Source: Cenococcum geophilum
Lineage: Eukaryota
Assembly: GCA_050273025.1 (NCBI GenBank)
Contig: CP158635.1
Coordinates: forward strand, 14,570,001-14,634,000
Reading direction: 5' to 3'
Length of the DNA stretch: 64,000 nucleotides
This document shows, piece by piece, positions 16,300 to 64,000 of this stretch. Position 1 is the first letter of the stretch; each line of letters begins with the position of its first letter. A model generated the notes under the pieces. That model saw nothing but the letters and a program-made list of their open reading frames with translations. It did no database searches and was not told the DNA's origin. The translations under genes were made by a program, and so were the position numbers.

Positions 16300-19200
16300 T
16301 GTTAAAATAGGTATAGTTTAATAATTATTTTTATTGAGCATACATATCTAAGAGGGTGGGGAAGCGACAATTATATAGAAGAGTGTCAGAGGTTCCACCC
16401 GATAAGAAGCAATACACGCTAACTAGAACCTACTTTAATAGCCCCCCTTAAGCTAAATATAGGTAACAATATGAAGGTCATAAGAGACGTTAATATCTCT
16501 CTAAACCTAAAGCATCTCTAAATGCATAGAATGCATCTTTTAGCAGTGCCTTAGTGAAACCATCAGCTATTTATTAACTTGTTTGTATATATTCTAGCTT
16601 AATATCTCCGTTTATAATCTTCTTCTAAATAAAGTAATATTGGAGAGTAATATGCTTAGTTTAAGCATAAAACTTAGGGTCTTTTATAAGAGCAATAGCA
16701 CCTTAATTATTGGCGTAAATAATTGTTATGTAAGGGGATTTATTAGTTAGAGATAGTTTTTAAAGGAGTTGTCGTAACTAAATAGCTTCTTTTACTATAA
16801 CTGTCTGTGCTATATACTCTGCTTTATAGGTTAAAAGTGCCACCGTAGGTTGGCGCTTTAAGGACTAGCTAATTGCACCGCTTCTAATATTAAACACAAA
16901 TCCTAACGTTAATCTTTAAGTTTCTAAATTATCTGCCTAGCTAGAGTTTATAAACCCCCGAAGCGCTTATATCTTTCCTTAGAGGATAAGTTAGAGGTTA
17001 AGTGTACCGCATAAGTAGGAAAGTATTTAAAGAATAGCTTGTATATAAGACTTATTGGGATTAGAAGTAAAGCGACTAATAAGGGAGACGGCGAAGGCGA
17101 TATTAGGTTAAGTATTGAGCATAGCGTATATTAGGGTGCCAACTAGCGATTAGTATTAAGTCTTAAATATAGAGTTAGCCTAATAATCTACCGCTGCTAG
17201 TTAAAGACAAGAGGTTCCTATTGGCGTAAGGTAAGGGGAACAGTTTTAAAGACTAGCGCTATAAATAGCCTCTTTAAGGTAAGAGAATTGGCTAAGCCGT
17301 AGTTTACGGAGTTATTAATCTTAAGTTACTTTTATACTAAGGTAATAAGTAATAGGGCCTAGATTGGTTATGCTAAAGCGTCCGCTAAGTTAAGCTTTAA
17401 TAATCTTAATGTTAATAATATCTGGTTTAATAAGTAGGAGGTTATTAACGTAGACTATAATATATATGGAACCTTTAGCGAAGACTAAAGAGTTAGAGTT
17501 AAGGGGTTTAAAACTAGCATTTATAAGGAACTCTGAGAGCGTTTAATGCCAAACTTAAGGCGACTATTTAAGACCGTAAAGTGCTTTGTTTAGACAATAA
17601 ACCCGTCTAGTTCTATTATTAAAACCTTTAGGTTGATTAACGTAGATCTCCTCCTTAACGCTTCCGTAAAGGAAAGCGGTCTTAATATCTATTTATTTAA
17701 TCTTAAGGTCTTATATAGCTGCGATAGCAAAGAGCGCTTTATAGCTTATAGGTTTCACAACAAACGCGAAGGTCTTATTAAAGTTAACCCTAGCTTATTA
17801 TTTATAACCCTTTACTACCTACCTTACCTTATATTATATAATCCTTCCTTTACTATCCCGCTTATGCTTAAAAACCTATTAGGCGTTAAGAACTTTATAA
17901 TTAAGAGGTTAGTTAATAAGTGTCTAGGTGTTATTTACTTTATAAAAGCTGATTTCGTCTTTACTAGTGGAGTACTATTTATTATTATTAATATTAAGGG
18001 TAGATTGTTTCTATAACCTTAGCTTATAAGGTTTAGCTATAGGGGAGTTACTAAGTATAGTATAGAGGTGTTTAAAGGAAGGGGTTAAGAAGTAGGCAAG
18101 CGCTAAGAATGCTGCAATAGGTGGGTTTTCTCTAATGTCGACAGAATTGCGATACTTAAGAGGTAGTTAAGGCCTATTAGTAGCTGCTAGACGTTTTGAC
18201 TTCCGTAGGGGTGTCTTATTAGTAGCAAGGCGCTTTAATTTTTAAGCTTTCTTAAGGAGCTATTTCTCTTCTTAATACTGTTTACATCGGGTAGCGTAAT
18301 TAGGTGGAACTTCTTCTCCCTTAAATTAAGCGTTAATATCTAGAGTATTGGAGTTATATTTAACATATTATTCTTAAATTTAACGCTTATTACTACTAGG
18401 AACTGTTAAAACAGTCTCTTAGAAGTGGACAGCTAAGGCACGTATAAGCCGTCCTATCTCTTTATCTTAAATTTAAATAATATATTTACCCTTAAAGCTA
18501 ATAAGGTTCCCTAATCTTACCTTCTCATCTATATAAGAGCTAAACTTCTTCTAACTGCCGGCCCTGTACTAGATATCGCACCTAAAGGTGTAAATTTAGG
18601 AGTAATTAAAGACTTCGCCTTGCTCTATTTTATAGGGGGTTTGTATTTCCAACGATTTAATAGGGAGGATATTTTGTATAAAGTTAGTATGCTTAACTAC
18701 TTCTGGCTAGAAGTTCTTAGGAAGTAAGTAATTATTTATAAAGGTAAAGGCTCGGTTATATATTATGCGATTAAGTCGTTTTAAGGCTTTATTTTATTAT
18801 TAACTCTTTAGGGTCGAGTATAAGAACTAAATTCCCTTATTTGCAAGTTCTAGCTAAAAAGCATATCTAAGATATTCTCCTCCGCCATTACTATATAGCC
18901 GTAAGATAAGACTTCCTTGTTGTTTAACCTTTGCTTAATATTATTAAAAATAGAATAGGACTTTAGCCTTATACTTTATTAGATAGACTTTACTTATTTT
19001 ATTAACTTTATCTTAAAAAGTAATAAAATATCTTAATCTATTATAGCTAGCTACTTTTATAGGTCCTTTAATATTAGAGAATATGACTTCGTAAGGCTTA
19101 GTATTATAGTTAATAAGAGAATCCCAATATATAATATCGTGCATTCTGTTACATAGGTAGGCTTTATAGGTGCAGTCGTAAAGGTTTAGTAAGTGAGTAA

Positions 19201-22098
19201 AGTCTATCCCTTTTAATATTCTTTAGAGCTTTTATAAGTTCTAGGGGCTAATATAACTGAGCCTTTTATGCCATAACCTCTTGGCTGGGTTTCGTGAGCT
19301 GCTATATAATATATGGCTGGTTTAATAGCCAACTATAAAGGCTATAAGCCCTTCTTAATAGTCAGCCTAAGTATAGAGAAAGAAGAGGCCGGACTTACGA
19401 AACGCGTAAGCTATAAGCTCTAAGTTATAGAGAAAATCGCATCTAAGGTTAGATAGATAAAGATAAACTTAATTATCGATAAGCTGTAAACTAGATACTA
19501 GGTTGGCTTATAAATTAGGGACGTAAAGGATGTTAGTAAGAATAAGCTCTCTTTTAACTCTTAGAACTATAAGTCTTAAGTATATATCTTCCTTTCCTAT
19601 TAACTAGAGACACGTTTCTCTAATTCCGGAGATAATAATCTTCTTATTAGCTTAAAGATCTTAATAGGTAATAAATAGCTCTCTTGACCGAAACATGTGC
19701 TAAGTATACTTAGTATTAATAATAATTGCAGAGGAAAGGTTAATATTTAGTTTAGCTATAAAATAAAGTTATCTAGTAAGTTTGGAGGTATAGGAGCGAG
19801 GAGGAATGCGAATAATATAGGAAACCCGCCACTAATAGGCAATAAGGTATAGTTAGCAAAGTAGGTTATGTGTAAAGTAGCGTAAGTTCTTCTATAGGTT
19901 ATATACGTAGGCTAATAGTTTCTATGCTAATAGTAAAGGTTAAAGGGCAATCTGTATAAGCAGTAAAAGACTATAAAAGAAGAATAGTATACCGGCTATA
20001 AAGAGTCTAAAGGGAATAAATAAAAAATAATATAAGAGTAAATGGATCTGTGGTAAAGAACGTCTAATATAATCGGAAATACAGGAGTTTCGGCTACGAT
20101 TATTAAGGTGCAATTATAGCCTAGTTAGCTTGCTATAGAGTTAAAGCTTTTATAGCTACCTTATTTGTTGCTAGACTATAGTTAATTAAATAGCCATTTT
20201 TATATATTGCCTTAATTTAGTAAGAGGCTTGCCATTTATTGTTGTTATTAATAGTGCTATAGGTAATAATATAGATCCTAATAAGGAGTTGCTCTAATGG
20301 GCTCTTTATTATTTTCTAAAGTCCCTTTTATAAGTAGAGCGCGTATCCATCTCTACAGCTTTCTTAGGGTTTTTCTTTTGCTAGATCTCCTTTAAGTGGG
20401 GTTAAAGGATCTAGTATCTGTCTTCCTAGTAGCCAGCGCGTTTATATGGCCTACAATATAGTCTATTATATTATTATTAGCCTTACTAATTGTAATACTG
20501 CTAGCGGTAAGAGGCTTAATTTGTGTGTACTTAGAAAGCTACTAGTTAACTTTAGAGCATAAGTTGCTCTTGTATATGGGTAAGGCCCTAAACTTTTAAG
20601 AGAGTAAGGGTCTCGTTAGTAAGGGAGTGTGTAAGGTAAAATAATTCTTACTAGCTGTTAAAAGCAGGACTGAGACCATTAATAAACTTAGAGAGTAGGT
20701 TTATTCGGTCTATAGTATGGTTTTAGGTCTTAAGGTCTAAGTATATCTCCTTAAATTTAATAACGTATTCTTTAACGTTCTTATAGTTTGCGAGAGTAAG
20801 GTTTCACTATTTAGCGCATATTTTAGCGTGTGTTGCGTCTCCTTTTGGCTTAAATTCCGCGTGTAAGATTTTTATTATATTCTTAATTTCGATATAGTCT
20901 TTAATAAGGTTCTATCTGCGAGTACTATAGGTTATAGAGATGCAGTTTATTCCCTTAAGTTGCTTTCTCTTTTAAGCTTTAAGATCCGCCTAATAAGTTT
21001 TAATAAGTTTATTATAAGCGTCTCTCTTAACCTAAAGTTGGTTTATGGCTAGTCTGGCTCCTAGGTTAACTAGAGCGTCTAAATTAAAGTTATTCTTAAT
21101 TAGCCACTACCTGGTACCTTTCTTCTACTTCTTATAGTCTGTAGGGCTTTTAAGTGTCTAAATATTAGAGAGATTAATATTGGACTTAGAGTATTTAATT
21201 GCTATAATAACTTATAAGAGAGAAGCAAGTGTTTTAGTAAAAAGGTAGGAAATAATATTCTTTGGCTTATATACTATTACCTTTTTAGTATTTAGTGTAG
21301 TGCTAAGGATTTAATAACTAATAACGATAATAATGATAATAATAATGGCACTAGGAATAGTGATAGTAATAGGTAACTAAGACATTAATAGAAAACCTAA
21401 TTTAAGGTTAATAGATAGTAACAGGCAACTAAGACATAGTAAGAAAAGCTAATCTCGATTAATAGAATGTCTAAAATTTCTAGAGTGCGTATGTCTAAAT
21501 TAGAGTGCGTATATCCAAATATCCGAAATATCTAGAGTGCGTATATTTAAGGTGTCTAGAGTATATATATTTAAAATGTCTAGAGTATAAAGTGTCTGGA
21601 GTGCGTATATCTAAAATGTCTAGAATGTGTATATCTGAAGTATCTAAAGTATAAAGTATCTGGAGTGCGTATGTCTAAAAAGTCTAGAGTGCGTATATCC
21701 GAAGTGTCTAGAGTGTAAAGTATCTAGAGTGCGCATGTCTAAAATGTCTAGAGTATATATATCCGAAGTGTCTAGAGTGTAAAGTATCTAGAGTACGCAT
21801 ATCTAAAAAGTCTAGAGTGTGTATATCCGAAGTGTCTAGAGTGTAAAGTGTCTGGAGTGCGCATGTCTAAAATATCTAGAGTGCGTATATCTAAGGTGTA
21901 TCTTAAGACGTAGTATACAGGTTGCTGCGCGATAGAAGCGTCTCTGGGCTTATAACCTGTTAAAATAGGTATAGTTTAATAATTATTTTTATTAAGCATA
22001 TATATCTAAGAGGGTGGGGAAGCGACAATTATATAGAAGAGTGTCAGAGGTTCCACCCGACAAGAAGCAATACACGCTAACTGGAACCCACTTCAACA
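16300..22098 (-). mobile_element. Full-length RIP-inactivated Ty1/copia LTR retrotransposon
   Basis: 141-bp LTRs at 16300-16440 and 21958-22098; perfect TSD GTTCT; PBS GGTTAT(G>A)AGCCC next to the 5' LTR; PPT AGGGGGGC. Degenerate gag zinc knuckle, integrase (SNGGGEY), RT (KALYGLK*SP, VYVNNLL from VYVDDLL) and RNase H (TKHI, IADGFTKAL) occur in copia order. Confidence 0.95.
21465..21900. repeat. Degenerate tandem array (tctagagtgcgtatatctaaa-type units) in the copia 5' leader
   Basis: Repeated tctagagtg... units of about 15-24 bp between the PBS and gag. Confidence 0.85.
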
Positions 22099-22569
22099 GT
22101 TCTTTGTAGAGGCGGCCATCTCCTTGCATGATCGCGGAAAGTGGATGGCAGATCTCAATGTAATAAAAGCTCAATCTTCGTGGCAAAGCGCGTCTAAACA
22201 AAGCGGTTGCCAGCATACCGAGAATTAACGCGCAGATACTACAATCGCAAAGCCCCTCGTTTCTGTGGATAGTTGGATTGAGTTCCTTGACCTGCCACTT
22301 TCCGGCTGCATCGTGCGCGCTCGTGGCAATGCCATGGCACGGCTTGCTGCTGCTTCGCTAGTAGTGCAAAAGTCATACGATTTTCGACTTATTTCTCCGA
22401 GTGGTTGCTGGGTATATTTATTCGCTGAGCCCGGGGAAGAATATCCTTCGCCACCATGCGTATATTCTGCGCAGGAGAGTAATAGTGACCAGGAATCGCT
22501 GCCTGAATCTGGCGATTGGTTGTATATGACGGAAGAAGAGGAGTCAGACCCAGGTAGTCCTTTAGCACC

Positions 22570-46830: not shown

Positions 46831-49800
46831 GAGTTCTCGAGCCACCTTCCCCTACTTATATCTTGGGGCGGAGGTAGCTAGTACTTTATTATATTATTAT
46901 AAAAACCTAGGCTTGTTCAGTATATATACCTATAAGGATAACTATTACTTCTAATAAAAATGCCGTTCTTAATTATAGAGAGCTGCTCGTTTTAAGTGTA
47001 AGTAAAAACTGTACTAAAAAGAACAGTAGATAATAAGAGCGAATGCATTTTTGGTTTGATTTTAAATTGCCAAGAATATGAATTTAAGTTAGTTTAAGTC
47101 TTATAACATTACCTAATACCTATATATCTGAATATATGGGTCTAAAAGTAGGACTGTTTAAAGGCCTGCTTTTGGGTAACTATATTAGCCTCGCTGTCGA
47201 TATAAGGTCCCAGTTTTGGTCCCTTATAAAATAATAAATTCTAAAAGCTGGGAAGTTTTCTCCCACTTAAGGTTTGTATATTATTTTTTCTTTTATTTAA
47301 ACCCTAAAACAACAACAATCTAGTCGAGTATTTTCGCAATATTTTTTTAAACCTTTGTAGCTATTTCCCTGTCTTATAACCTTTGCTAGCTGCGCTCTAT
47401 TGCCCAATACTAATATAGTAGGTAGTGGGCTTCTAAACAGTCCTCTGCCAGCGGAGATATCCGTTATTAGAGTAAAAGATATTCAATTAACACAATTCCT
47501 TAAAAATTTAGAGGTTTCGTTCTTCTTTACTAAATTTATTAATCTCTTATAGTAGGTCACAGAAGGATATTTAAACAGCTCTATAGATACTGTTAGTAGG
47601 ATTGCCACAGTAAGTTATCTTTTTCTGTTATTTAACCTCCTTTAGCTGACTTTAAGTAGCAAGAAGAGGTCTATCTTAAAACTCCTACCACTATCTTTAA
47701 TACTTATAGTGTGCTACTAACCCTACCTTATAACTATTTATTCCCAGTCTCCTTTATAAAGGAGTTCTTCAAATTAACTAATCTTATTAGCTTAGTCGGT
47801 CTCTTTACGGTTATTAGACTGTCTTAGCGTCTTACACTCTTAGATCCTTTAGCTGCGAGGCTTATTTTTTTTAAAAAATTCTTTAGTTAAATCTAGATAT
47901 AATATTTTTTTCTATAATATTTAGGAGAGATAGCCGAATCCTTCTCTATTTAATATAGGTATTAGTACTATCTAGGTATATAATATAGCTTTATTATTTA
48001 TTATACTAGGATTATATCTAGTTAAGATTCTAATTCCTATACTTCCCAAACTTATAGTGGCTAAAGTAACAATCGCTCCTTATGTAAATAGTATAAATAG
48101 CACTAGTGGATATATATTAAAAGAATTTACGTAAGACAATACGCAGATACCTTTTATTATCGAAGGGGATAAATAGCTGCTTACTGGCTAGGTAAATTAG
48201 GTCAATAAGCCTATATACTCCCTTAATAATAATAATAAGGGGAAAAGAAACAGCTAGAATGCTATAAGGGATAAGTAGGATTACTTTTATAGCTATAACC
48301 ACTAAGTAGTATAAGAATGTTAATAACTTTATACTGGGTATAATAGTTAGTTTAGCGGTTATTATAGTGTCCTAATTAAAAAGGGTAATCTAATTAATAT
48401 AATAGAAACTTTAGCGTTAATATAGTTGTAAGTAATATCTACTACTACTTAATAAGAAACACTATACCCCTAGAATACTATTAAAAATTATCTTAACTTT
48501 AATTAATATAGAATCTGTTTATATAATAAATCTTTTTAGGTATCTATTAATGCTAAAATAAGATATCTAGACATTGATACGAGAAAGGACTAATTTGTGG
48601 CTTAGCGAGTATTTTTAACAACTACGCTAAATGCTTGACTTATTACAGTCTAAGAAAATATAAATAAAAGGAAATATAGCAGAATATACAAGCTCGGTAT
48701 AAGGCATTATAGCGTTAATAAAACAAAATCTAAAGTCTATAATCTAGGACTTAAAATATAAGTTTAGGTAGAAATCCGTATTAAGATAATAAGTATTATT
48801 TTATTAATTATTAATCTAAGCTAGAATATTAAGTCTTTATGCCTATCTAGTATAATTAAGGTCGATATTTAATAATTCATTGCTTAACGTCCGATTTAGA
48901 TCCCTATTGGGCCCACGCGGACTACTCCTTATTTACATATAGGGAGAAAACTCTATTTAAGAAAAATGAGAAAACCCCGTGATCCATCTCCCTGCCTTTT
49001 GGGACTCGCCTACTTAGCGCCTACAAGTCGCCTATAGTGCTCTACTACCTTACTGTTTAACCTCCTTAGGAACTACTGCTGCCGTAACAAGCCTATGGAC
49101 GCGCTAGTATTACAAACTATTACTCTACTACTGTAGAGTTACTAAGGGGCACCTACTGCTTGCCCCCTTGCCTTCTATTACCATTTCCCTTATAACCTGG
49201 AACTAATTTAGCATATTTTAACTAATAAGCCACTAGGTAACCGCCTTAAGGCCTTTTTATATTAAGAGCAGTATATTATAGTTCTCTATGCTAGCTACTA
49301 AGAGCATTATTTCTTAATTGGTGCGTAGGGGGCATAGCAGTATTACGTATTTTGGTGTCTATTTTAGCTAGCCACATTTACATCTTAGGCTACCTATTAG
49401 GACACCCACCTAGTAAAGCTAATCTTTTAGTCCTATTATTCCTGTTCTTAAGAGTGTTGCTATTATATTTTCTACCTTTATTAGGCCTTCTCAGAGCCCT
49501 TAGGTATTTACCCCCTATAGCGTTAACTATGCTATAGCTTAGGTTTATCTTACCTAAGTTAGCCTCTATACCTTTAACTTCTATTTACCTCTCTAGCGTT
49601 AGTCTAACCAGTATTATATTATAGTAGATGGTTTCCTAGCGTTCTTATATATTCTACTTTAGCTCCTTTCTCTATTTTGCTGTTATCTTTACTAACCTCT
49701 TACACATCTCCCTTTTTCCTTTATATAGGCCTAGGCCCTAAAGCGGTACTATTCTTTTTTTGCTTTCTTTACCTATTTCTCTAATATCTCTTCCCTACTT

Positions 49801-52800
49801 TAGGGTTGTTGGTTTGTTCTCCTATAGGGCACCCTAGGGTCCCTCTATAGTTTACTTAGGCGTGTCTTAATGTACTTTATAATATTAGAGTTATATTTAT
49901 TTTGCGTCTTTTATATTACAGCGGCTTTAATATATAACTATAGGGGGGGAATATTGGATTCCTTCTTAAGCAGTACTATAGCCGTTCGCTTATACCCGCC
50001 TATAATACTCTAAAGGTAGGCTATTTAGACCTTTTAAAGTAGTTTAAGAAGTGATTTAGGGGGGCCCTTCTTAGTTTCTCTAATGGCCTAAATACTAGAT
50101 CTATATGTTATAGTTAGCTAAATAACTGCTATATATAGTAGGCGTGACCTTTAGAAGTATAGACCCTATATAGAATTAACAATCCTGGATAAAGCGATAA
50201 ACTATACTTGGCCTTTACGGGCCGCTTACGCCGCATATACGCTCTACCGGAGCTTACTATCTACCTATACTCCTAATACCCTTAGGCCCTAAACTAGTTA
50301 ACCCCTAAAGCCTTAAATGCGAATTATATACTAGAGATCTATAAATTAGTTATATTTTCTTATAAAATGGATTAGCTGGTATTTCTCTAGTAAGAATTAG
50401 ACTTTATAACGTTTTACCTATTCTATATAAGTATTATAGGCTTTCTCTAGTGTTCTACAATTCTCTACGGCTATTAGCCCGTATATAATTAGGTTTATAT
50501 TATTAATAAAGCCTATCCCCTAGGTTACCCCTTCCTTAAAGAAATTAAGTAGGTTACTTATAAAGAAAAGGAAGAGTATAGGTAAGAGGGGTAATTCTTA
50601 TAGTATTCCTGTTGCAACTATAATAGGGGGGCTCTGGTATCCGCTAAAGACTAGTAATGTTTCTTTCTAGCCTATAAACCCTTAGATAAATTATATAATC
50701 TATTCTAAGAAGCCCTTTGCCCTAAGGATATGCAGGAGACGCTTATGGGGTATATTGTTATAGGCACCACTAATATTTAGGCTAAGTATTAATACTATAA
50801 AGTCCTTTCGCATCGCCTATATAGATTTAATGGTGGCAGTAAGTAGCGTAAGTGCTAATAGTGTTAAGCGGTTCTTTCTTACCCCTATTTAGCTTTATAG
50901 TAGTAGGGCGTGTTCCTCTACCGTATCTACTATACGTTCCGCTATTACCCTTTTTAAGATCTTGCTAAGGGTGTTTTTTAAGGCAATAGGGCGGTAGCTT
51001 TCTGGGATTAAGTAATCTACTTTGCCTTCTTTTTATAAGATAACCGTTGTTATAGATCTTCCAAGTTATGGGTAGTAGCCTATAGCAAAGTATACTCTGG
51101 CTACATCTATAAGCTAAGGTACTATAAGTGGCCCATAGGTTTTTAGGGCCTTATTTGGAATCCTATTTAGTCCTAGTGCTATATTATTTAAAAGGCGGCT
51201 AATGGTTCTAGCCATTTCCTCTATTATTATGTCGCTGTTAACCCATAGGCGAGTTACCAGTGTTTTGCCCGTAATATTACTAAGGTCTGCTAGAGCTAGT
51301 TAGGGGAAGAACCTTTCTGTAAGGATCTTTGCCTTCTTATCGTTATTGTTTATGGCCTGTGATTCTCCTACTCTTCGTAGGGGTGGTAGGTGTGGGTCTT
51401 CTGCTAGGCGCCCTGCCTTTTTCTTTACCTATTTCGCTATAGCCCAAAGGCCCTTGTTATGGGGGAGGCTCGGGTTAGAAGTATGCTCGTTTATAAACCG
51501 TCTCCAGTTATTCCTTGCTTCTTTTTTTAGGGTATTCTTTAGCTAGTTTCTTGTGAAGGTCGATATTTAAGCTGCTAAAGTGTCTTAATCTACCTTCTCT
51601 AATTAGGGATTCCTATTATAAATGCCAAAGTATAAAATTTTCTATATATTTAGTCCGCTTCCTTTTTTCCTTCTAATATATCCTTCTAACAGAGTTCCGC
51701 GAGCCTAAAATAAGATAATAGGCGGTTTAGGTTATTTTCTAAGACATAGCTTTAGTCTTTAACAGCTTGTCTTTCTTAGCGAAGTAGCATTATTTTCTCT
51801 TCCTCAAGTTCTTTAGGTGTTGGAAGTAGAGCGTTAAAATCGATGTATTCCGGGTTGAAGTAAGTAAGCACTATAGGAGGAAGAGACTATTGATCTATAA
51901 TTCCTTTTGTAATAGCCTCTATAGAAACGTTATAATAGAGCCAGCTAGCCTTTTTATAGAGTCCTTTCCTTTCGTAAAGGTTAGCGAGATTAAATTCTAT
52001 CTTTAGCATTATTTAATTGTTTGGTTGGATATAGCAGCTAGCAAATCTTAAAAGCTTTTACTTTAGCTCTAGTTAAATAAGTTCTAATTTATTAGGTGGA
52101 AAAAAGATAAAGTACTTAAATATTAAGTAAGGGATTCTATTAAGATTAATTAATTATAATAATAGACGTATTCCTAGAGCTTAGAAGGGTTGTATTTAAT
52201 AGTAGAAAGCTAAAAAAGAAGAGTAGTAGAGATTAGTGTATAAGAAGACGAAAGTAAAAAGGCTGTTTAACAGCTTTATATAGACTTTATTAACTCTATT
52301 ATATATTTATAGTTATATTAGTAAACGCCTAATAACGCGTTTAATCTATAATTAAGGGCGAAAAAGCCTAGTTAATTATCTATCCTTATTTTATAAGCCG
52401 TGCTTAATATTAGTACTATACTCCATCTACTCGCGAGATATAATACCTATTATAAACTAGATAGTCCCTTTTATACAAACTGTGTATAGCCTGCAATCTA
52501 AGGAGCCTTAGAATATTACTAAATGCTACGCCATTATTACTTTAGGCATTTATTATAACAAAAAGACAATTAACTATAGCATTACTTAGGCAGAATAATA
52601 ATAAAGCGGCCTTTGCTTTTATGTGGTTTTTATCTATTATATTGTTTTATATTATTTATAGCTTAGCACAATAGTATATAGCGCTATATCCTTCTATCTG
52701 TTATATATAGATTATAGTTATACTAAGAACGAAGTACAGGCTGTTACCTAATATAGCGATATTAAAAGGCTTAGCCTTTAGAGAGATAGGCTTAAGGCGA

Positions 52801-59649: not shown

Positions 59650-60070
59650 AGCTTTAGGTAGAGCCTCGCGCAGAGCTTTAATAAAGCCTTATGTAGAGCT
59701 TTAGTAGAGGCTTACGCAGAGCCCTACGCAGAGCTCCGCGTAGAGCTTCGTGCAGAGCTTCTGCAGAGCTTCGTGCAGAGCTTCGTGCAGAGCTTCGTGC
59801 AGAGCTTCGTGCAGAGCTTCGTGCAGAGCTTCGTGCAGAGCCTCGTGCAGAGCTTCGTGCAGAGCCTCGTGCAGAGCTTCGTGCAGAGCCTCGTGCAGAG
59901 CTTCGTGCAGAGCCTCGTGCAGAGCTTCGAGCAGAGCCTTGTGCAGAGCTTTGAGGAGCTTAAGCAGAGCTTTAAGCAGAGCTTCGAGTAGAGCTTTAAG
60001 TAGAGCTTCGAGTAGAGCTTTAAGTAGAGCTTCGAGCGGAGCTTTGTGTAGAGCCTTATATAGAGCTTTA
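59650..60070. repeat. 12-bp minisatellite (gcagagcttcgt)n
   Basis: Near-perfect core at about 59745-59930, with degenerate RIP-like copies on both flanks. Confidence 0.95.
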
Positions 60071-60177
60071 TATAAATATATAGGCGTATAAATATATATT
60101 TTTATACTAGTAATTAATTATAAAATTTATAGAAATAATTATATAGGAAATTATATAGATATTTATTAATTTATTTA

Positions 60178-62872
60178 TAGTAAGGCTAATAATACTATAC
60201 GGCTCCTAGATCTAGGGCCTAGGAATAAGTAGTAAGGTATTAATAAAAAGCTCCTTAGCGCTATTAGCTAAGCTATAAATCTAGTACCTATATAGAACTA
60301 TAGGGGTTTATAAGAGAATATTACGCGCTATACTAGAATATAAAGTAGTAGTTCTACTAGTAGATGTAAGAGTATATATATTAGGTCCCGCCGCGCTTGC
60401 GACAAGTTCGCAAGCACTCTCAGTCTTTTTGGCCGTATGGCGACGTGGAGGCGGGCCACGTTACAATTGTGCTTGCGAACTTACCGGGGCCAGGTGTTGT
60501 GGGTTCGATCCCCAGCGGTTACTTTACTCTAGTACAGTCTAACACGCATCCGTGCGATGAGGCGGGTCGGCTGAGTCCGATTGCTTATGTTACTGGGGAC
60601 TAACTAATATAGTGATACTCTTGGCGTTTGATCCCTGTGGAGGCCCGAGAACGGGCGCACAGAGGAATCCCTGCGAGCGCTCGGGGACGAGCGCGCAGAG
60701 GAGAGGGCAATTGTAAGAGTATATATATTAGGTCCCGCCGCGCTTGCGACAAGTTCGCAAGCACTCTCAGTCTTTTTGGCCGTATGGCGACGTGGAGGCG
60801 GGCCACGTTACAGTAGACTTATATATTAATATAACTACTATATAGAGAATAGTTATAGTATAAGGCTACTTAGTAAAAGAAAATATATGCTAAATACTAA
60901 AACGTATGTAAGGATTGAGGGCCCCTTAAAAAGGCAATACGCCTAAGTATACTAGCTAGGAAGCCCTCTACCTATAAGTAGTAAAGAAAGAAAAGAAAAT
61001 ATAGGAACTATTAGCTTACTAGGTGGAGACCTAGCGCTATACTAGTAGAGATCTACTATACTTATTACAAAATAGGTAGACCTTAAATAGAAGCGATAAT
61101 AGAAGGAGGTAGTAAAAATATAAGACGTAGCTATATAGAATACCCTATAGTTAATACTAATACTCCTCCTATATAAAGGACTAATAAAGGTAAAATCTAT
61201 ATCCGCCTTCCTACTATAGATAGAGATTTTAAGCCTAAATATATAGCTAGTAAGTATCTATATTCTAAATACTATACCTTAATACACTTATAGATAGCCT
61301 ATTTAGTTAGTATACTATATACTACTTTTCTATAGCTACTACTTAGTAAGGTACTAGCTATTTACTAGTATAGGTATAAATTATATTACTTATACTCTCT
61401 ATAAGTAGGGGCCTATAAGTAGTATTAATATAGCTTATAGGCTAAGGAGTTTTTTAGTAGTTCTAAATAGTATATAAGATCTAATAGGAAGACACTAAAG
61501 GATATACCCCTTTTAGCCCCTTAGAGACTAAATACTGCTGCCTAGCTGTAGATAGTACGCTAATAAATTACTAGATACTCCTACTACCCCCCTTAGATCT
61601 TCTAATATACCTAAAAAGTATAGTATATAAGGTAGACCTAAAGATATAAAGATATATTAGTTTGGTAAAGGTAGAATATATAAAACTAACTAAAAGGAAA
61701 TACTTAGGATTTTCCCTTTATAAGGCCTTTTCCTATAAAGGGAAAACCCTAAGTATTTCCTTTTAGCTAGTTTTATATATTCTACCTTTACCAAACTAAT
61801 ATATCTTTATATCTTTAGGTCTACCTTATATACTATATTTTTTAGGTATATTAGAAGATTTAGAGGGGGGGGTAGTAGAAGTATCTAGTAATTCGCTAGC
61901 ATACTACCTACATCTAGGTAGGGATATTTAGTCTTTAAGGGGCTAGAAAATGGAGTACCCTTTAGTATCCTCCTATTAAATCTTATATACTATTTAGAAC
62001 TATTAAAGAACTTCTTAGCTTATAAGCTATCTTATTACTACCTATAGGCCTCTACTTATAGAAAGTACTTAGGTAATATTGTTTATGCCTATACTAGTAA
62101 ATAGCTAGTACCTTACTAAGCGGTAACTGTAGAATAGTAATATATAGCGTATTAACTAAATAGGCCACCCGTATATATATTAAGGTAAGGTATTTAAAAT
62201 ATAGATGCTTACTAGCTATATATTTAGGCCTAAAACCTCTATTTATAGTAGAAAGGCAACTATAGATTTTACCTTTATTAGTATTAACTATAGGGTGTTC
62301 TTTATAGCTGCGTCTTATATTTTCGCTACCTCCTTCTATTATCGCTTTTATTTAAGATCTACCTATATTATAATTAGTGTAGTAGATTTCTATCTATATT
62401 AGTAACCTTTTATCCTCTATTACTATTATAGCGCTCTAATAGTATAGCGTTAGGTCTCCGCCTAGTAAGCTAATAGTTTCTATATTTCCTTTTCTCTCTT
62501 TACTACTTATAGGTAGTAGGCTTCCTAGCTAGTATATTTAGGCGTATTACCTCTTTAAGGAGCTATCGCTTCTTATATATATATCTTATTCCTTATATAT
62601 ATTTTAGTATTTAGTATATATTTTCTTCTACTAGGTAGCCTTATACTATAACTACTCTCTATATAGTAGTTAAGTTACTATATAAGTCTAGTAGTAGAAC
62701 TACTACTTCGCGTTTTAATATAGCGCGTAGTATTCTTTTATAGGCCCCTATAGTTCTATATAGGCACTAGTTTTATAGCTTAGCTAGTAGCGCTAGTAAG
62801 CTTTTTACTAGTACCTTACCGCCTAGTCCTAAGCCCTAGATTTAGGAGCCGTATAGTATTATTAGCCTTACT
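60178..62872. repeat. Large RIPed palindrome with ~1.1-kb arms and a loop of at most 11 nt at about 61723-61733
   Basis: The centre reads ...ttttccctttata aggccttttcc tataaagggaaaa.... The arms match out to gtaaggctaataatactatacggctcct / aggagccgtatagtattattagccttac. Confidence 0.9.
60365..60812 (+). mobile_element. 448-bp miniature non-autonomous LTR retroelement (TRIM-like)
   Basis: Identical 101-bp LTRs TG...CA (60365-60465 and 60712-60812), perfect TSD GTAGA, 246-bp non-coding interior, and a purine tract agaggagaggg before the 3' LTR. Confidence 0.93.
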
Positions 62873-62979: not shown

Positions 62980-64000
62980 AATAATAATAATAATTTATTA
63001 CTTAACGTCCGATTTAGATCCCTATTAGGCCTATATAGACTACTCCTTATTTACATATGGGGAGAAAACTCTATTTAAGAAAAATAAGAAAACCCTATAA
63101 TCCATCTCCCCGCCTTTTAGGACTCGCCTACTTAACGCCTATAAGTCGCCTATAGTGCTCTACTACCTTACTATTTAACCTCCTTGGGAACTACTGCTGC
63201 CGTAATAAGCCTACGGACGCGCTAGTATTATAAACTATTACTCTACTACTATAGAGTTACTAGGGGGCACCTGCTGCTCGCCCTCTTGCCTTCTATTACT
63301 ATTTCCCTTATAACCCGGAACTAATTTAGCATATTTTAACTAATAAGCCACTAGGTAACCGCCTTAAGGCCTTTTTATGTTAAGAGTAGTGTATTATAGT
63401 TCTCTGTGCCAGCTGCTAAGAGTATTATTTCTTAATTGGTGCGTAGGGGGCATAGCAGTATTATGTGTTTTGGTGTCTGTCTTAGCTAGCTATATTTATA
63501 TCTTAGGCTACCTACTAGAATACCCACCTAGTAAAGCCAATCTTTTAGTCCTATTATTCCTATTCTTAAGAGTGTTGCTATTATATTTTCTACCTTTATT
63601 AGGCCTTCTCGGAGCCCTTAGGTATTTACCCCCTATAGTATTAACTATGCTATAGCTTAGGTTCGTCTTGCCTAAGTTAGCCTCTATACCTTTAACTCCC
63701 ATTTACCTCTCTAGCGTTAGTCCAACTAGTATTATATTACGGTAGATGGTTTCCTAGCGTTCTTATATATTCTACTTTAGCTCCTTTCTCTGTCTTATTA
63801 TTATCTTTACTAACCTCTTACGCGTCTCCCTTTCTCCTCTATATAGGCCTAGGCCCTAAAGCAGCACTATTCTTCTTCTACTTTCTTTACCTATTTCTCT
63901 AATATCTCTTCCCTACTTTAGGGTTGTTAGTTTATTCTCCTATAGGGTACCCTAGGGTTCCTTTATAGTTTACTTAGGCGTGTCTTAATATACTTTATAA
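62980..64000 (-). mobile_element. Second copy of the Tad1-like LINE (3' end; runs off the window)
   Basis: Colinear with 48873-49880, differing mainly by C/T and G/A transitions. (TAA)n tail at the left end. Confidence 0.92.

Follow-up and report, generated by a model that had tools for sequence, protein, structure and literature searches.

Structure of the element

The DNA analysed, called the window below, was a 64,000-nt stretch of the Cenococcum geophilum genome (CP158635.1:14,570,001-14,634,000), and all coordinates are positions within it. A 448-bp element was identified at 60365-60812, composed of two 101-nt long terminal repeats (LTRs) and a 246-nt interior, with no open reading frame (ORF). 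In a direct-repeat comparison the LTR pair was 100% identical over 101 nt at an offset of 347 nt, with the ends TG..CA. The element is a TRIM (terminal-repeat retrotransposon in miniature), that is, a small non-coding LTR retrotransposon, and it is freshly inserted.

The 5' LTR (60365-60465) and the 3' LTR (60712-60812) were flanked by two copies of the target-site duplication (TSD) GTAGA, at 60360-60364 directly before the first and at 60813-60817 directly after the second. A polypurine tract region (GCAGAGGAGAGGGCAAT, 60695-60711, conservation 0.928) adjoined the 3' LTR, so the element is oriented on the + strand, on which all its features are given here. The initial annotation had described a miniature LTR retroelement at this place, which was confirmed; it had proposed looking for 5-bp TSDs, and the GTAGA duplication is an addition to it. 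Judged by the TRIM definition in the accessible part of PMC6934838, short terminal direct repeats, a non-coding interior, a total length below 1 kb, a TSD, dispersed copies and a polypurine tract were present, and the primer-binding site (PBS) position was taken by a sequence complementary to the LTR which did not begin with TGG.

The 5' LTR had a mean majority fraction of 0.954 in 32 copies. A TATA element (GTATATATATTAG, 60372-60384), with a conservation of 0.993, would serve as the RNA polymerase II (Pol II) promoter, and the TATATATATT run within it (60374-60383) begins 30 nt 5' of a putative self-primer (AAGTTCGCAAGCAC, 60404-60417). A pyrimidine-rich block (CTCTCAGTCTTTTT, 60417-60430) follows, ending in a T5 run (60426-60430), which may be a start-site or 3'-end-formation element; the second T5 run lies at 60773-60777 in the 3' LTR.

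Distribution and mobility of the family

Family loci were collected by scanning metagenomes for the LTR/PBS pair; of the 49 loci returned, 46 were kept. Three (L006, L032 and L036) were dropped as bacterial hairpins, chance matches which arose because the search pattern is palindromic. The 46 loci held 31 additional full-length copies of 421-486 bp, 72-96% identical to the window copy, while no second copy was present in the 64-kb window itself. The expectation of related copies with 5-bp TSDs was borne out: with the window copy and its GTAGA included, 25 of 32 copies had perfect 5-bp TSDs, and every site was different. Words of the element were widespread, since 20 of the 24 sequencing runs listed, from 19 studies, contained at least 0.61 of the sampled words. 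Four runs were compared against 60200-61000, and numerous variant positions fell within the element. In run X8 the flanks of the element were a very high-copy repeat, and a contig joint in this flanking repeat passed from 60358 to 60812, omitting 453 bp. This equals the 448-bp element plus one 5-bp TSD copy, so the joint represents an empty site.

Full-length copies fell into 16 short, 10 long and 5 divergent ones, and six subfamily consensus sequences were compared. The long subfamily had an insertion of 21-26 nt 5' of a T-arm-like hairpin in the interior, and a different 3' half of this hairpin. It was equally young, the LTRs of the copies L004 and L047 being 100% and 99% identical, both with TSDs. 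The family is mobile, multicopy and recently active, and apparently it is still active.

Copies were flanked by AT-rich DNA (58 of 64 flanks below 40% GC, median 0.31 versus 0.535 for the elements). Decay among copies consisted mostly of C>T/G>A changes (367 of 541 substitutions), a pattern like that of repeat-induced point mutation (RIP). Host genes in the window included those for EMC1, a PCA1-type ATPase and F-box proteins, and a HET-domain gene was found on the family-bearing contig L043; HET domains mark filamentous ascomycetes.

One copy, L046:613-1072, had LTRs only 88% identical and from different subfamilies, with the 5' LTR like those of L010 and L014 and the 3' LTR of the main type. 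Either recombination, perhaps by template switching, or chimeric assembly accounts for this copy.

Other repeats were observed around the window copy. A 12-nt minisatellite (unit approximately GCAGAGCTTCGT) occupied 59658-60090, 270 bp 5' of the element, with at least 21 in-register copies and decay toward both ends. Just 3' of the element, at 60984-62500, AT-rich DNA formed a large nested inverted-repeat structure with arms of 82-225 nt that were 84-94% complementary (e.g. 61168-61392 with 62070-62294). AT-rich blocks at 48870-49882 and 62988-64000 formed a 1013-bp direct repeat with 92% identity.

Self-priming architecture and proposed replication

The putative self-primer at 60404-60417 was the perfect reverse complement of 60469-60482, over 14 nt, and this putative PBS (GTGCTTGCGAACTT) stood 3 nt past the LTR, exactly where a PBS would be placed. 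With the first 30 nt of the interior as target, 14 nt of complementarity was reached by none of 20,000 LTR shuffles, the maximum being 13. The predicted fold of RNA 60404-60490 closed on the primer/PBS duplex at -35.6 kcal/mol (z -3.20), and 0 of 200 shuffles were as good. Because the interior does not start with TGG, the PBS cannot pair with the CCA end of a tRNA.

A U5 stem-loop was also present beside the PBS in the minimum free energy (MFE) fold. This hairpin (60443-60461, ACGTGG / CCACGT with a 7-nt loop) ends 7 nt 5' of the PBS, and its pair 60447:60457 was GC in 24, GU in 4, AU in 3, UA in 3 and otherwise composed in 1 of the family sequences, which is transversion-type compensatory change at the subfamily level. 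Judged from its sequence, the arrangement of primer and PBS is a Tf1-type self-priming architecture. This complementarity, which was absent from the initial annotation, supplies a complete conventional replication scheme, and the element is probably a self-priming TRIM, transcribed by Pol II and carried through an ordinary LTR cycle by an autonomous partner.

By this scheme Pol II would initiate about 30 nt past the LTR TATA, near 60404, and the first 11-14 nt of the RNA would pair back with the complementary PBS, which lies 3 nt past the LTR. RNase H of the partner would then free the primer, which would be extended through U5/R, and plus strands would be primed from the polypurine tract. The element encodes nothing, and its mobilisation would require proteins from an autonomous LTR element. 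The primer lies 5' of the T5 run, so the replicative RNA must cross T5, which argues for Pol II over RNA polymerase III (Pol III).

RNA evidence came from related elements at 90-95% likeness to the window copy, which have the LTR end and PBS in common with it. In run X21, composed of raw RNA reads, 42 reads had an unmatched part 5' of 60458, and its median length of 17 letters was that of the full consensus. No read therefore reaches further, and at least half start at the equivalent of 60440/60441; other loose ends in this run show up to 30 letters. A complete contig of 180 nt in run X4 (contig 10) ended at 60441, with X4 taken as RNA by guess. This 5' end lies 10 nt past 60431 and 36 nt past the start of the primer. 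Mate orientation in X21 shows a strand bias that points to RNA of + sense, and 8 reads crossed the T5 run of the 3' LTR with a median of 57 further letters.

An RNA which starts near 60440 would lack the primer. A precedent exists in Tf2, for which the accessible part of PMC5341516 describes a dominant downstream start that yields RNA without the self-primer, which cannot be reverse-transcribed, and an upstream LTR start that is used under stress or upon nucleosome loss. By analogy, the primer-less RNAs of the relatives could be the counterpart of these non-productive short Tf2 transcripts, which would reconcile starts near 60440 with self-priming, though an analogy is not proof.

Several observations weigh against a self-priming TRIM transcribed by Pol II. 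No RNA 5' end was seen at 60404 in the reads, the sole sharp one being that near 60440, 36 nt downstream. Conservation of primer and PBS in the 46 loci is not independent evidence, because the pattern used to fetch the loci required that pair and the conservation thus exists by construction. A variant LTR in runs X1 and X4, with 60403-60407 changed from CAAGT to TCAATA, left 10 complementary nt without visible compensation. Cloverleaf-likeness of the element above chance (14 of 1000 flank shuffles, see below) and a B-box core present in all active lineages are not specifically predicted by self-priming, and for the T5 run, invariant in 64 of 64 LTRs, only a conjectural role can be offered. Finally, the 46 loci and the window yielded no autonomous partner.

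In the search for the partner, the loci and the window were screened for ORFs of 350 aa or more, which proved to be host genes with the sole exception of an unlinked RVT_1 ORF. The latter, an intact 372-aa ORF at L012:3119-4234 (RVT_1, E 1.3e-32), lay 3 kb from a truncated TRIM copy, and it was rejected as the partner as no shared LTR links the two. Stop-free fragments 3' of the LTR and PBS in L045, L033 and L017 and beside the window element contained no retroelement domain, and scans of viral contigs for a partner were empty. Other LTR pairs (window 16300-22099, L046, L047 and L037) were likewise rejected, with an unrelated PBS and polypurine tract and no Pfam matches.

Some of these pairs were distinct elements in their own right. 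An AT-rich, RIP-like LTR element stood at 16300-22099 in the window. It measured about 5.8 kb, its 141-nt LTRs were 95% identical, its ends were TGTT..AACA and its TSD was GTTCT, and L046:1909-6734 (TSD GTCGC) is a member of the same family. An LTR element of about 10 kb at L047:1513-11589, with 168-nt LTRs, the TSD GGTCC and no Pfam matches, carried in its LTR a 9-nt complement (GTTGCTCTA) to interior positions 2-10. Its primer differs from that of the TRIM, and this self-primer-like architecture suggests that self-priming is common in the genome.

Leader stem-loop and tRNA-like hairpin

Directly 3' of the PBS, 60480-60490 paired with 60526-60537 in folds of long and divergent copies (L002 and L004), forming a leader stem-loop (60480-60537) with a T-arm-like hairpin, GTGGG-TTCGATC-CCCAG (60499-60515), at its tip. 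In 36 distinct sequences 99.0% of 394 cells of this stem could pair, versus 26-45% with the partners slid. Variation in the stem was all one-sided and pair-preserving and the shuffle control was flat, so the data are consistent with the stem but do not prove it by covariation. The best-conserved interior block in the comparison of subfamily consensus sequences, 60524-60566, provided the 3' strand of the leader stem with its first part, and the insertion of the long subfamily fell inside the leader stem-loop domain.

The core of the hairpin, GTCGTGGGT-C-A, occurred in all six subfamily consensus sequences, while its 3' half had diverged, and the hairpin paired in different registers in the short and the long subfamily. 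Its B-box core was intact or one mismatch off in all 6 copies with LTRs at least 99% identical. The interior blocks 60524-60566 and 60588-60601 were as conserved as the hairpin or better. An acceptor-like pairing of 60440-60444 with the sequence 3' of the hairpin was also considered, and it was set aside since it forms in long and divergent copies, has an internal mismatch in short ones and is inconsistent among MFE folds. The hairpin is most likely a cis-acting RNA signal of the leader, which may act in packaging, dimerisation or priming.

The initial annotation had drawn attention to a tRNA-like feature split across the LTR/interior junction, and its components were present: the two T5 runs, an A-box-like sequence (TGGCGACGTGG, 60438-60448) with one mismatch to TRGCNNAGYGG, and an exact B-box match (GGTTCGATCCC, 60502-60512) within the T-arm-like hairpin. 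This B-box match was the sole one on both strands of the window, where A-box matches with at most one mismatch numbered 57, and a pair in the correct order and spacing occurred once, at the element. No tRNA was called in the window by ARAGORN at default settings, and at the 95% threshold there was a single window call, tRNA-Cys(aca) at 60430-60522. Of 1000 sequences in which the hairpin was kept and only the flanks were shuffled, 14 passed the 95% threshold. Twenty block-shuffled windows gave 0 calls at default and 16 at -ps90 (0.8 per 64 kb), and in 423 kb of loci 18 of the 20 calls at the 90% threshold fell on family copies. At default settings 1 of 32 copies (L021) was called. The tRNA-likeness is real, weak and above chance. 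ACA is no normal Cys anticodon. In tRNA gene prediction, the family gives rise to false near-threshold calls of tRNA-Cys(ACA).

The likeness was unevenly distributed. A cloverleaf was called in 13 of the 16 short copies of full length and in 5 partial ones, and in none of the 10 long or 5 divergent copies. The Rfam tRNA model had no match at E<=10 in the element or in L021, and the fold of 60431-60522 was no better than shuffles (z +0.80, 161 of 200 at least as good). Covariation across the copies did not uphold the cloverleaf: in 35 sequences 83.3% of cells could pair, 2 of 20 pairs never formed and one acceptor pair was unpaired in 18 of 35, and the double changes were all G-C to A-U transitions, which RIP could yield by chance.

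A genuine tRNA-like module that is not the replicative promoter is an unlikely alternative for the hairpin. It would be the decayed remainder of a captured tRNA or short interspersed element, with an origin like that of the Helenus elements discussed below, or a tRNA mimic or extra-TFIIIC-type site within a Pol II-transcribed self-priming TRIM. The cloverleaf score above chance, the B-box core in the six consensus sequences and, within one mismatch, in all six copies with the most similar LTRs, and a hairpin upheld in two registers speak for such a module. However, the acceptor partner and the hairpin's 3' half have drifted apart gradually between subfamilies, which fits an ordinary evolving leader hairpin, the T-arm-like hairpin (mean conservation 0.818) and the B-box (0.83) lie below the interior mean of 0.889, and other interior blocks such as 60524-60566 are equally or better conserved.

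It is less probable still that the tRNA-like module is functional, with the hairpin recruiting TFIIIC/Pol III or mimicking a tRNA for the reverse transcriptase of the partner or for host tRNA enzymes. If this were true, the element would be a new kind of TRIM, with an LTR-encoded self-primer and a tRNA-like leader split by the LTR boundary. Two polymerases might then be involved: the replicative RNA with the primer would come from Pol II, and an abundant RNA without it would be made by Pol III or from another start at about 60431-60440.

Alternative transcripts and templates

The pairing of LTR and PBS could also be a 5'-3' cyclisation signal, an improbable reading in which transcription starts at about 60440, the 14-mer lies in U3 near the 3' end of the RNA and priming occurs in another way. 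Such 5'-3' contacts are used by Ty1 and Ty3. The sole observed 5' end, near 60440, is in agreement with it, as is an X1 contig (60661-60812) that spans the entire 3' LTR, and the upstream pyrimidine tract resembles the start-site contexts of filamentous fungi, for which the literature search gave no usable support. Against it, R and U5 together would measure only about 25 nt, and an alternative primer site was not evident, the start of the interior having no complement to a tRNA 3' end. The complementarity stands exactly at the PBS position, and the location of the TATA element suits initiation at the 14-mer's first base. Moreover, a primer-less short transcript is already documented in a bona fide self-priming element, as described in the accessible part of PMC5341516.

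The initial annotation had proposed a tRNA-type internal Pol III promoter, with a start at about 60431, a stop at the T5 run of the 3' LTR and a unit-length template of 347 nt without terminal redundancy. The element would then be TRIMp3-like and of a new design. This model is very improbable, and the tRNA-like feature is most likely not a working Pol III promoter. In its favour stand the exact B-box and one-mismatch A-box in tRNA-like spacing, unique in the window, and the cloverleaf calls in the window copy at 95% and in L021 at default, together with the low pass rate of the flank shuffles. To these may be added a GGTTC core in all subfamilies and the report of tRNA-like TRIMs, Helenus, in fungi (accessible part of PMC10886601). 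All 32 copies carried the T5 run in each of their two LTRs, and, as the initial annotation had stated for the window copy, no run of four or more T occurred between 60431 and the T5 of the 3' LTR, again in 32 of 32. The latter was rejected as Pol III evidence; it is uninformative because the copies are related by descent and decay neutrally once inserted.

Conservation and RNA evidence both run against this promoter. The A-box was not conserved across subfamilies, with 3 mismatches in L002, L010, L014 and the 5' LTR of L046, and in L010 and L014, which have TSDs, these were found in both LTRs. Its mean conservation in the 32 copies, 0.918, was below the LTR mean of 0.954, and it overlaps the U5 hairpin with its compensatory pair (60443-60448 with 60456-60461). 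An 11-nt deletion of the A-box in L039 was at first taken as proof that the box is dispensable, and this was withdrawn since the deletion is only in the 5' LTR and therefore arose after insertion. The cloverleaf was limited to the short subfamily while long copies are equally young, and neither the Rfam model, the fold against shuffles, the pairs that never formed or stayed open, nor the abnormal anticodon fits a tRNA-type promoter.

In related elements the RNA began within the A-box rather than at 60431 and the T5 run was read through, and no pile of read starts or ends at 60431 or 60776 was reported in the four runs. The RNA data thus oppose the proposed Pol III start and stop, and they do not show a start at 60404. 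A unit-length RNA beginning at 60431 would have no LTR-internal primer at its 5' end, and an RNA without R and without a 5' primer fits no known LTR replication scheme. Tandem LTR-interior-LTR arrays, which the initial annotation had proposed to look for, were found in 0 of 46 family loci, and the interior-LTR-interior contigs in X1 and X4 were rejected as evidence for circles or tandem arrays because assembly through a repeat gives the same picture.

Significance

In terms of genome annotation, the element represents a clean TRIM family, from a filamentous ascomycete, which inserts into AT-rich, RIP-like DNA and which escapes notice because it is short and non-coding. With a self-priming TRIM as the preferred reading, a non-autonomous element of 448 bp would carry the full cis set of promoter, primer, U5 hairpin, PBS, leader stem-loop and polypurine tract, and it would offer a compact substrate for dissecting self-primed reverse transcription outside fission yeast. 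No description of self-priming non-autonomous LTR elements or TRIMs was found in the literature search, Repbase and Dfam lying outside its scope. The anatomy of a self-priming TRIM and the conserved B-box-like hairpin are worth noting.

Comparison with known systems

Cassandra, a plant TRIM with a Pol III promoter derived from 5S rRNA, and the retrozymes are, like the present element, small non-autonomous LTR elements. No match to 5S rRNA or to a hammerhead ribozyme was found at E<=10 in the element, so both are excluded. The conserved hairpin site of GalEa (PMC5445492) was considered and is not applicable, being a different motif at the LTR junction.

The initial annotation knew of no tRNA-derived fungal equivalent, a premise removed by the description of Helenus (TRIMp3; Kojima 2024). 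According to the accessible part of PMC10886601, Helenus elements have tRNA-like LTR sequences and occur in Pucciniales and some Agaricomycetes, the entire tRNA-like unit lies within each LTR and is recognisable by tRNA similarity, and the PBS corresponds to part of a tRNA, in many cases the anticodon-loop region of tRNA-iMet. As far as that text goes, they resemble the present element in being fungal TRIMs with 5-bp TSDs and A-box-like (TRGC..YGG) and B-box-like (GGTTC) motifs. In contrast, the motifs here straddle the LTR/interior junction, with the B-box-like motif 37 nt past the LTR end, the match of the PBS is to the LTR, and the element comes from an ascomycete, the fungal hosts given for Helenus being Basidiomycota. 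The element is not a Helenus, because its boxes are not both in the LTR, tRNA similarity was undetected by Rfam and boxes A and B are not where conservation is concentrated.

TRIMs in general share with the element a length below 1 kb, LTRs of about 100 nt, the position of the PBS, a polypurine tract, the lack of an ORF, a 5-bp TSD and multiple copies, and they differ in that their PBS is complementary to a tRNA, while here the putative PBS complements the element's own LTR and does not begin with TGG. Self-priming is established for Tf1/Tf2 and proposed for Tj1 and for the ascomycete Ty3/gypsy elements Maggy, Skippy, Cft-1, Boty, Grasshopper and Afut1, and the hosts of the Tf1/Sushi group include filamentous ascomycetes (accessible parts of PMC4600332, PMC6934838 and PMC6317226). 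The element resembles this group in its LTR-internal complement to a PBS just past the LTR and in the U5 hairpin beside the PBS. In Tf1 the self-primer complementarity is 11 nt, and a U5 stem-loop is reportedly required. Unlike the Tf1/Sushi elements, the present one is non-autonomous and only 448 bp long, with 14 nt of complementarity. A transcription start at the primer and release of the primer by RNase H cleavage are predicted from the layout it has in common with them.

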